Source: an uncultured Chloroflexota bacterium
GTDB taxonomy: Bacteria; Chloroflexota; Dehalococcoidia; Lucifugimonadales; CAJXCD01
Length of the DNA: 64,000 nt
Assembly: GCA_913051545.1 (NCBI GenBank)
Contig: CAJXCD010000002.1
Location: 55,991 to 119,990 of the forward strand
Direction: 5' to 3'
Shown piece after piece: positions 30,333 through 31,805 of this stretch (positions are counted from its first letter, which is position 1; the number at the start of each line of letters is the position of its first letter). Under the pieces are notes generated by a model. It was not told the DNA's origin and made no database searches. It saw only the letters and a list, made by a program, of their open reading frames with translations. The translations under genes were made by a program, and so were the position numbers.

Positions 30333-30362
30333 TTGACAGGAACATACGTTCTGTTCTAAACT
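30333..30362 (+). promoter_or_regulatory. Sigma70 promoter with a LexA (SOS)-type operator in the spacer
   Basis: TTGACA (30333-30338), 18 nt, TAAACT (30357-30362). GAAC-ATAC-GTTC at 30340-30351 matches the Gram-positive/Chloroflexota GAAC-N4-GTTC LexA box. Confidence 0.7.
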
Positions 30363-30370
30363 GTTCTAAA
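30351..30370 (+). repeat. Tandem 10-bp direct repeat (CTGTTCTAAA)x2
   Basis: Read directly; overlaps the -10 element and adds two GTTC half-sites. Confidence 0.8.
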
Positions 30371-30405
30371 ATAAGCTATAAATAATATTCAATGGAGATG
30401 AAGAG

Positions 30406-30672
30406 ATGGAAGTACTAGATATTCCTAAAGTCGCGGCACAAGTCAAAATGGAAGGGATGCCTCCTATTCCTAAGCCTATATCGGTTTCTCCAAAAGATCT
30501 TCGTCGCGGTCAATCTGTAAGATATATTGGTCATCTTTCTGGCGGTCCTCGGTATGGTTCTAATGGAGTTGTAAGGGATACTCTCATGCGAGGGGCGTTA
30601 GTCGATCTAGGTTTATCCGGGAGGTGGAGGATTCCGTTTCATTTTCTTGTTCCTGTCACTAGGGTTGCCTAA
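30406..30672 (+). CDS. Small hypothetical protein (possible SH3/KOW-like beta fold)
   Basis: 88 aa, GGAG SD, first gene after the SOS promoter; LRRGQSVRY...G.V...ALVDLG..GRWRIPF pattern. Confidence 0.7.
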   Translation: MEVLDIPKVAAQVKMEGMPPIPKPISVSPKDLRRGQSVRYIGHLSGGPRYGSNGVVRDTLMRGALVDLGLSGRWRIPFHFLVPVTRVA

Positions 30673-30713
30673 CTTTCTATATATTCCTTTCAATTATTCT
30701 GTTGTAGGAGCGT

Positions 30714-31805
30714 ATGGTAATGAATCAGTTAACTAAAAATAGGGTAAGAATAACAGTAGTTGGGGTTGGAGGAGGAGGAGGAAATACACTTTCTCGTATC
30801 GTTGATTGTGGCAATGATGATATGGATTTACTGGCACTTAACACAGACCTGCAGGCATTAAATATGGTTCATGGTGCACAAACATTTGCAATTGGTCCGG
30901 AAACTACTAATGGTATGGGCTCTGGTGGTGAGGCTGACGTAGGGAGGAAAGCAGTTAGAGAGAGCCAGGAAAAAGTGTCAGGAATTCTAGAAGGATCAGA
31001 TGTGGTGTTCATTACAGCTGGTATGGGGGGAGGTACCGGTACTGGCGGGGCACCAGTCGTTGCAGACATCGCCCGTAAGCAGGGTGCCCTTACCGTCGCG
31101 GTTGTGACAACTCCTTTTTCGTTTGAAGGTCATTTGAGAACTGAAGTTGCCTCTAAAGGACTTCGTCAACTTGAGTCTAAAGTGGACACAATGATATGTG
31201 TAGACAATGACCGGTTACTTTCGAATATAGATAGCAGTTCAAATTTGGATGATGCTTTCCAACTTGCGGATGATGTTCTGCGTCAAGGGGTCGAAGGTAT
31301 TTCTAAAATTGTTACAGGTATCGGCGTGATTAATGTAGATTTTGCTGATGTTAAGACTATTATGTCTAACGGGGGAAGATCATTTATGGCTATAGGGACA
31401 GGGAAAGGAAATTCTGCAGCAATAGATTCTGTTCAAGACGCGCTCGAAAATCCTATGTTTGATGCCCCAATAAAAGGGGCATCAGGAATATTGCTAAATA
31501 TAAAAGGTGGAAAGAACCTCAAGATAAATGAAGTAGAAGCTATTACACAAATGATAAGCGATGCTAGTGGCTCAGATCCTCAGGTTATGTTTGGGCTTAC
31601 AAAGGATAACAGCAGACAGTGGAGGAAAAAAGTCGAAGTTACAGTTGTGGCAACTGGAGTTCAAGGGGTAAACGAATTGAATTCCGAAGCATCGAATGTT
31701 GGTCAGAAAGTTTTCTGTCCAGTCCCCAAACCTATGCCTAATTTTTCTAATAATCGAATACCTGCTTCATCTTTGTTGGGATCCCATTTTCACAAAGGAT
31801 CTTAG
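30714..31805 (+). CDS. ftsZ: Cell division protein FtsZ (stand-alone, divergent C-terminal tail)
   Basis: VGVGGGGGN, NTDLQAL, tubulin signature GMGGGTGTG, PFSFEG, T7 loop INVDFADV, VTVVATG. Confidence 0.93.
   Translation: MVMNQLTKNRVRITVVGVGGGGGNTLSRIVDCGNDDMDLLALNTDLQALNMVHGAQTFAIGPETTNGMGSGGEADVGRKAVRESQEKVSGILEGSDVVFITAGMGGGTGTGGAPVVADIARKQGALTVAVVTTPFSFEGHLRTEVASKGLRQLESKVDTMICVDNDRLLSNIDSSSNLDDAFQLADDVLRQGVEGISKIVTGIGVINVDFADVKTIMSNGGRSFMAIGTGKGNSAAIDSVQDALENPMFDAPIKGASGILLNIKGGKNLKINEVEAITQMISDASGSDPQVMFGLTKDNSRQWRKKVEVTVVATGVQGVNELNSEASNVGQKVFCPVPKPMPNFSNNRIPASSLLGSHFHKGS

Follow-up and report, generated by a model that had tools for sequence, protein, structure and literature searches.

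A predicted LexA-controlled operon pairing a small protein with an FtsZ paralogue in one order of Chloroflexota

The window considered here is a stretch of 64,000 nucleotides (nt) from an uncultured Chloroflexota bacterium (contig CAJXCD010000002.1 of assembly GCA_913051545.1, positions 55,991 to 119,990 of the forward strand), which holds on its + strand a promoter followed by two genes, the first encoding a small protein of 88 amino acids (aa), the second a full-length paralogue of FtsZ, hereafter FtsZ2. A promoter scan places the -35 hexamer TTGACA at 30333..30338 and the -10 hexamer TAAACT at 30357..30362, with a spacer of 18 nt and agreement with the consensus at 10 of 12 positions. Inside this spacer lies the palindrome GAACATACGTTC (GAAC-ATAC-GTTC, 30340..30351), a predicted operator of the SOS repressor LexA, and two extra direct GTTCT half-sites on the + strand (30353-30357 and 30363-30367) flank or overlap the -10. 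The open reading frames (ORFs) of the small protein (30406..30672) and of FtsZ2 (30714..31805, 363 aa) are separated by 41 nt on the same strand, and both are preceded by a ribosome site of GGAG type, AGGAG lying 5 nt 5' of the ATG in the case of FtsZ2. An earlier, sequence-only reading had reported this layout, with the box between TTGACA and the -10 and ahead of the 88-aa ORF and ftsZ, and its coordinates agree with those given here.

The predicted operator and its conservation

LexA control of this two-gene operon with its FtsZ paralogue is well supported and, judged from sequence, very probable: LexA would bind the promoter box and DNA damage would induce both genes. The genome encodes a LexA (185.8 bits against a cut-off of 110.95) whose translation reads intact and includes an Ala-Gly site together with Ser and Lys contexts, residues to which we presume the usual LexA roles, and recA is present as well. 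The core AACATACGT is found upstream of lexA (as GAACATACGTAC), of recA (as AAACATACGTGC, overlapping TAGAAT) and of the window operon, so the sharing with lexA and recA that the sequence-only reading had named as a check is there, more weakly for recA. At the lexA loci of 30 relatives, a box with at most one mismatch occurs within 250 nt upstream in 26 cases, 6 of them perfect. When the genome was scanned with a matrix derived from 24 sites upstream of lexA in relatives, its own sites excluded, the window box ranked first with 18.9 bits, above sites before a 131-aa protein of no known family on contig C6 (18.7), before lexA (14.6), at the ruvB start (13.9), in the spacer between nrdR and a ribonucleotide reductase gene (13.7) and before recA (12.2), which makes it by prediction the tightest operator of the genome. 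The bare pattern GAAC-N4-GTTC is not enriched, with 14 perfect copies genome-wide against about 25 expected from composition, and promoter-like matches in the region number 5 against 4.1 in shuffled sequences; the bare pattern stays within chance, and the significance of the box rests on its matrix rank and its conservation.

This conservation extends to the whole promoter. Among 30 loci of the small gene, the box is perfect in 13, carries one mismatch in 13 and is absent in 4, and the best upstream site reaches at least 12 bits in 18 of these loci and in 12 of 20 further genomes; of 545 control windows, each 150 nt long and taken from the 30 loci, 1 does so. The complete arrangement, TTGACA-(A)GAAC-N4-GTTC-T-GTTCTA-N(3-6)-GTTCT, is retained in 25/30 loci and in 19/20 further genomes, many of them close kin, with TTGAC(A) directly 5' of the box in the same proportions (25/30 and 19/20). 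The box is thus retained before orthologues across one order, as the sequence-only reading needed it to be. A palindrome within the promoter, a LexA with a boxed promoter of its own and a conserved site are all found, as in LexA regulons of the Gram-positive type. The LexA of Dehalococcoides, reportedly described in 2002, is said to recognise the same motif. For Bacillus subtilis and Mycobacterium, GAAC-N4-GTTC has been published as the motif that LexA recognises (PMC3323433).

Two features of these promoters sit less easily with simple control by LexA. A recA site of at least 12 bits is found in only 8 of the 30 relatives, which points to a small and atypical regulon, and the left GAAC half-site of the window-type promoter is often degenerate when the extra GTTCT repeats are almost invariant (GTTCTA-N(3-6)-GTTCT in 25/30 loci), so that the main binder could be some other factor, or LexA binding in a different way. 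A repressor other than LexA, or acting besides it, might read the three direct GTTCT repeats in response to a signal other than DNA damage; the composite GTTCTGTTCTA, which occurs once in the genome, at this promoter, would fit such a repressor, as would the better conservation of the repeats than of the left half-site and the lack of genome-wide enrichment of the perfect palindrome. Yet a matrix made from lexA promoters alone still ranks the site first, two stand-alone genes of FtsZ2 type (see below) have clean palindromes, and the LexA of alpha-proteobacteria itself recognises a repeat in direct orientation, GTTC-N7-GTTC (PMC3323433), so that such repeats are compatible with LexA and a second LexA dimer is conceivable. 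Another repressor is for these reasons held to be quite improbable. The possibility that the box serves the divergent short-chain dehydrogenase/reductase (SDR) gene was discarded, the box being inside the + strand promoter and 168 nt from the SDR start.

A weak hint that the two genes are transcribed jointly comes from a metatranscriptome library in which one contig of 306 nt spans 30435-30721 at 99% identity, beginning within the small ORF and reaching the start of ftsZ2; it is a single contig of a single library, of a kind that can hold DNA, which tells against giving it much weight. The contig bears at its 30435 end 19 loose letters that resemble the remnant of a cDNA-synthesis adapter, which would make this position a fragment end within the small ORF and not a transcription start. 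Two RNA runs (X20 and X21) contained nothing matching the stretch, which is uninformative either way.

Two further contigs, from one marine DNA run, match the window at positions 30340-30370 alone (31 nt, one difference), which cover the box and the GTTCT repeats; their flanks are unrelated, and one flank has TTGACA at its end. The operator core is therefore shared by other organisms of the same water.

The FtsZ paralogue and its lineage

FtsZ2 has the two Pfam domains of its family (Tubulin, 1e-41; FtsZ_C, 4.9e-19) and scores 335.5 bits against TIGR00065 (cut-off 295.2), for which the housekeeping copy reaches 395.5. This second ftsZ lies on contig C17 directly 3' of the FtsA gene (PF14450, 2e-33), its product ends in ...DIPPFLRR..., and FtsZ2 is 42% identical to it, so that the window copy is a paralogue, as the sequence-only reading had suspected. 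The same reading had judged the GTPase motifs intact, and in the orthologue alignment (A2) both the signature GGGTGTG (columns G103-G111) and the T7-loop residues N207, D209 and D212 are invariant.

In its C-terminal linker and tail (residues 317-363, approximately; 31662..31802), FtsZ2 differs from the housekeeping protein. PPFLRR is absent from the window copy and the aligned orthologues, a few of which retain a degenerate P-G-L-L-E remnant, and a [PS]F[LV]R tail is found in 41 of 42 ftsA-linked FtsZ; most FtsZ2 orthologues terminate instead in NGH-x(9-11)-[KR]LL. The string RIPASSLL of the window copy had been taken for a decayed FtsA-binding peptide, an idea given up here because the orthologue alignment puts it in this different conserved tail. 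The sequence-only reading was therefore right about the paralogue, the presence of LexA and the conserved box and wrong about a degenerate anchor peptide, the PPFLRR peptide being simply missing and another conserved tail standing in its place. Neither the FtsA-binding peptide nor the ftsA/dcw linkage of a housekeeping division FtsZ is found in the window copy; no dcw genes and no ftsA occur among the neighbours, again as first reported, all of them being metabolic (FGGY kinase, 2-hydroxyacid dehydrogenase, PhyH, SDR, PAC2, M20 peptidase and NAD kinase).

An FtsZ gene follows the small gene in 17/30 loci and in 14/20 further loci, with order and strand kept and a median gap of 52 nt (range 2-308), and in loci devoid of FtsZ2 the small gene directly faces the next gene. 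Twelve genomes that have the small gene and lack FtsZ2 at this locus contain no FtsZ more than 46% identical to FtsZ2, and in a scan of genome contigs with FtsZ2 every match was an FtsZ of 39-50% identity, none of them an orthologue.

A tree was computed from 79 FtsZ sequences of 43 genomes, of which 42 are ftsA-linked, 17 small-gene-linked and 20 neither. The 17 linked FtsZ2 fall on one side of a single branch of length 1.33 (Shimodaira-Hasegawa-like approximate likelihood-ratio test, SH-aLRT, 100), joined there by two copies on long branches whose genomes lack the small gene. Both of these copies, whose placement in the tree preceded the inspection of their promoters, have a perfect TAGAAC-N4-GTTCTA box, scoring 18.5 bits in one and 20.5 bits in the other, which lies between TTGACT and the -10, 51-56 nt before the start. 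The 200 nt upstream of the 42 ftsA-linked ftsZ, and of 12 ftsZ of a third paralogue group, contain no site of at least 12 bits. A predicted LexA box thus stands at 19/19 FtsZ2 copies examined, and its presence at copies that have no small gene beside them indicates that LexA control follows the FtsZ2 lineage itself.

The third paralogue group is represented in the order by 12 copies from 10 genomes, which form their own clade (SH-aLRT 99) and show no adjacent ftsA, no PPFLRR tail and no LexA site (loci L166, L169, L172, L185, L189, L191, L197, L199, L201, L202, L208 and L209). One genome (G001) has 7 FtsZ matches, and in one relative (G051, contig C1; L204:2552 and L204:3666) a tandem pair of closely related ftsZ genes lies near ftsA. 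The ftsA-linked FtsZ itself varies after its PPFLRR peptide: an NG[H/S/Y] motif (as in L001:904-2022, - strand) is present in 16/25 genomes with the small gene and in 0/17 others, a pattern defined post hoc. The tails of FtsZ2 bear the same NGH as this housekeeping motif, and since the genomes concerned are kin, one shared origin could explain the pattern.

Does FtsZ2 hinder the Z-ring or build something of its own? The sequence-only reading had allowed for a poisoned or replaced Z-ring and for a separate filament with the small protein as adaptor. FtsZ2 might be a helper under LexA control, forming its own filament or replacing the housekeeping FtsZ, for example in division restart, membrane remodelling or nucleoid organisation, with the small protein as an adaptor, perhaps to DNA-loaded clamps. 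The wholly intact GTPase motifs and T7 loop would suit such a helper, and so would a tail with its own conserved motif, which suggests a dedicated partner, the LexA box at every FtsZ2 copy examined, and the post hoc distribution of NG[H/S/Y] among kin genomes. On the other hand, the operon is not accompanied by a gene for a membrane anchor or any other partner, FtsZ2 has been lost in many lineages that retain the small gene, and the SOS-induced division factors so far described are inhibitors. A helper role is regarded as unlikely.

The small protein and the sliding clamp

The small protein belongs to no family in Pfam, NCBIfam or PHROGs. Its AlphaFold2 model (predicted local distance difference test, pLDDT, 85) consists of a disordered N-terminus and a five-strand barrel, ends in ...RVA and has no predicted membrane segment. 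Foldseek found nothing in the PDB at E <=0.001 (best 2.5e-3), and a wider fold search returned only generic SH3/KOW/Tudor barrels (best Z 8.8), matches too general for the fold to reveal a function. The family comprises 96 clusters among 1.84 billion representatives, the Atlas cluster of the small protein being labelled Chloroflexota. It is present in 29/61 genomes when one is taken per family of the order, in 133/301 genomes of a wider sample of the order, where its presence is all-or-none by family, and in 0/400 other genomes across the phylum (6 from the same order). A phage origin was entertained on account of a rank-2 Atlas feature match to a mostly viral cluster (0.90) and is not supported, PHROGs having given no match. 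It is this protein, and not FtsZ2, that is the conserved core of the locus, as 13 of the 30 loci have the small protein without FtsZ2.

Two ends of the protein are conserved in the family. At the C-terminus, where an ssrA-like degron would have Ala-Ala, 18 of 29 aligned small proteins finish in Ala-Ala and 3 more, the window copy included, in VA; Ala-Ala also ends 19/20 further members, against 2 of 150 control ORFs. At the N-terminus, residues 9-22 (VAAQVKMEGMPPIP; 30430..30471) hold a motif resembling the Q-L-x-L-x-[LFG] type that binds the beta sliding clamp, with Q12 retained in at least 90% of the family alignment (A1) and the pattern Q-h-x-h-x-G-h (h, hydrophobic) in 32 of 52 family representatives, the consensus being QLxMPGM, or Q-L-x-M-P-G-M-P with the next residue.

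A complex of the small protein with DnaN of the same genome, the one partner modelled, was predicted with a score of 0.64 (runs 0.64, 0.64 and 0.66), against 0.28 for the best of 3 controls; in a benchmark, the mark was reached by 116/157 solved complexes and by 2/215 mismatched pairs. The runs share at least 75% of contacts, with a partner pLDDT of at least 66. Only residues 9-22 of the small protein enter the modelled interface, facing DnaN residues 151-155, 172-177, 245-250 and 369-376, many of which are invariant in the DnaN alignment (A3); we take this surface to be the cleft occupied by the peptide when complexes of the clamp are solved. In the model, then, the motif docks in the peptide cleft of the clamp. 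The genome's own DnaE2 contains a comparable QLSLPL, and 352-QLPLWG-357 is the clamp motif of mycobacterial ImuB (PMC10421592).

These results could also be read as describing a protein concerned solely with the replication fork, which would, for example, compete with polymerases for the clamp or steer translesion synthesis, FtsZ2 being a passenger. DnaN is the sole modelled contact of the small protein, the small gene stands alone in 13/30 loci, and an imuB/dnaE2 cassette lies 3' of ruvB with a box at the ruvB start, all of which agrees with a role at the fork. A passenger, however, would not be expected to have its own perfect box in genomes that lack the small gene, which argues that LexA control of FtsZ2 has been selected in its own right, and the gene order, strand and short gap maintained in 17/30 and 14/20 loci speak in the same sense. 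A function confined to the fork is thus rather unlikely.

A possible division checkpoint and its relation to known systems

The reading that we favour, to which we give an even chance, is that of a LexA-repressed two-gene checkpoint operon that delays division in one order of Chloroflexota, the roles of both proteins being put forward on the basis of their anatomy and, for the clamp, of a model. In the undamaged cell, LexA on the palindrome between -35 and -10 would keep the operon silent, probably with help from the pair of additional GTTCT half-sites that lie across the -10 and the start region. Upon DNA damage, RecA-stimulated self-cleavage of LexA would allow both proteins to be produced. 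The small protein may then place its disordered Q-L-x-M-P-G-M-P motif in the peptide cleft of the clamp, bearing its SH3-like barrel, and FtsZ2, which by its motifs should still bind and hydrolyse GTP and hence polymerise, may co-assemble with the housekeeping FtsZ. Because FtsZ2 would be competent for polymerisation and has no FtsA-binding peptide, such co-assembly would weaken membrane tethering, as tail-less FtsZ does in model bacteria, and division would be delayed until repair is complete. The conserved ends of the two proteins (Ala-Ala in the small protein, Leu-Leu in FtsZ2) might mark both for quick proteolysis once LexA returns.

Several observations weigh against this checkpoint. FtsZ2 is catalytically intact by its motifs, and nothing marks it as an inhibitor over a working filament; it is absent from 13/30 and 6/20 small-gene loci, so that the small protein does not need it. 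The window copies are themselves divergent in each of the elements invoked, the small protein ending in VA and not in AA, its clamp motif reading QVKMEGMP, and the tail of FtsZ2 being without NGH (...NNRIPASSLL followed by 8 extra residues). Clamp-peptide complexes are abundantly represented among solved structures, so that the score of the predicted complex may reflect structures already learned by the predictor; it establishes a likeness to clamp binders and not binding, and the control with DnaN replaced still scores 0.28. The FtsZ tree was made by a quick method, and all the evidence is computational. Operator rank, anatomy, conservation and paralogy are observed and the docking on the clamp is modelled; the binding of LexA to the box, the induction by damage, the mixed FtsZ filaments, the arrest of division and the degrons are our extrapolation.

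A variant would tie the two proteins together more directly. The LexA-induced small protein would be an adaptor that sits, by its N-terminal motif, on clamps remaining at damaged DNA, its barrel capturing the NGH tail common to housekeeping FtsZ and FtsZ2, so that FtsZ is held on the nucleoid or in untethered co-polymers until both induced proteins are degraded. Such an adaptor is improbable as it stands; if it were real, it would be a direct physical link between clamp and Z-ring in wall-less marine bacteria.

By analogy, the favoured checkpoint would work like known SOS division checkpoints (SulA, YneA, ChiZ, SidA, SosA) and be a member of none of them. SulA of Escherichia coli is an FtsZ inhibitor repressed by LexA through one of the tightest SOS operators and removed by Lon. 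The operon considered here resembles it in its operator, predicted to be tight, in the presumed target, FtsZ, and in the presumably short life of its products, and is set apart by what it encodes, an FtsZ paralogue together with an SH3-like protein; no SulA (PF03846) match was obtained in the genome at E up to 0.01, with a control search that recovered SulA of E. coli. YneA, ChiZ, DivS, SosA and SidA are small, lineage-specific and mutually non-homologous SOS division inhibitors of Gram-positive bacteria and alpha-proteobacteria, linked to the membrane or to peptidoglycan and acting late in division. A small lineage-specific protein behind a GAAC-N4-GTTC box (motif from PMC3323433) is what the Chloroflexota operon shares with the Gram-positive members of this set. 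Unlike these inhibitors, the small protein has no predicted membrane segment, and the genome, by estimate 92% complete, yielded neither FtsW/RodA nor a penicillin-binding protein (PBP) transpeptidase. SAR202 bacteria, according to a published account, possess ftsZ and ftsA and lack ftsW and ftsI (PMC11994032).

Two other comparisons concern the proteins taken singly. The small protein is like ImuB in its motif of Q-L-x-hydrophobic-x-G type, modelled in the clamp cleft, and in its predicted induction by damage, and unlike it in being an 88-aa protein made only of this motif and an SH3-like barrel, with no polymerase fold and no described family. Extra FtsZ paralogues without the C-terminal peptide are known from Rhizobiales, magnetotactic bacteria and plastids (FtsZ1), and FtsZ2 is likewise a second, motif-intact FtsZ without an anchor-binding peptide beside a complete housekeeping copy; it is set apart from them, none of which is reported to be controlled by LexA, by the predicted LexA box at all 19 copies examined. 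No published account of a LexA-controlled FtsZ paralogue was found, in a search that was thin on subscription journals, which agrees with the suggestion of the sequence-only reading that the arrangement is undescribed.

The known examples of SOS-linked division control are a few small inhibitors, unrelated to one another, and in all the cases known to us the FtsZ of the cell is acted upon and is never itself the effector. In the present operon a member of the tubulin family is itself under predicted LexA control, together with a new family of small proteins resembling clamp binders, and the arrangement is kept across an order of abundant marine Chloroflexota that apparently lack a peptidoglycan division machinery. 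If the checkpoint is true, it would add a new type of effector to the SOS response and would amount to a natural experiment with a tail-less FtsZ on membrane tethering and the Z-ring. It also offers a testable link between the status of the replication clamp and division, and as the parts are small and soluble, in-vitro work is possible without culturing the organism.

The assembly from which the window comes measures 1.86 Mb with a G+C content of 41.6%, and the DNA runs that contain the stretch are marine or seawater metagenomes. Other SOS-type sites are scattered over the genome. The second-best one, CAGAACATGTGTTCTT (18.7 bits; L148:2524-2539, G000 contig C6 ~66923), abuts a TTGACA and lies 45 nt 5' of the 131-aa ORF (L148:2569-2964), which has no family in Pfam or NCBIfam and may, by its operator, be another SOS gene. 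The 13.9-bit site overlapping the ruvB start (L154:2477-2492, G000 contig C1 ~249676) is followed about 2.5 kb 3', on the same strand, by an ImuB-like gene of the Y-family, an ORF of 95 aa and a gene for a DnaE2 of 1044 aa. The 13.7-bit site (L161:2531-2546, G000 contig C17 ~13030) is situated between nrdR and the large subunit of a class II-like ribonucleotide reductase, 43 nt 5' of the reductase gene and about 1.4 kb from the housekeeping ftsZ. Finally, lexA and dnaN are divergent neighbours in three relatives (G034 C10, 43979-45762; G030 C40, 9954-11152; G019 C1, 2780386-2782218), where dnaN may share the operator region of lexA.

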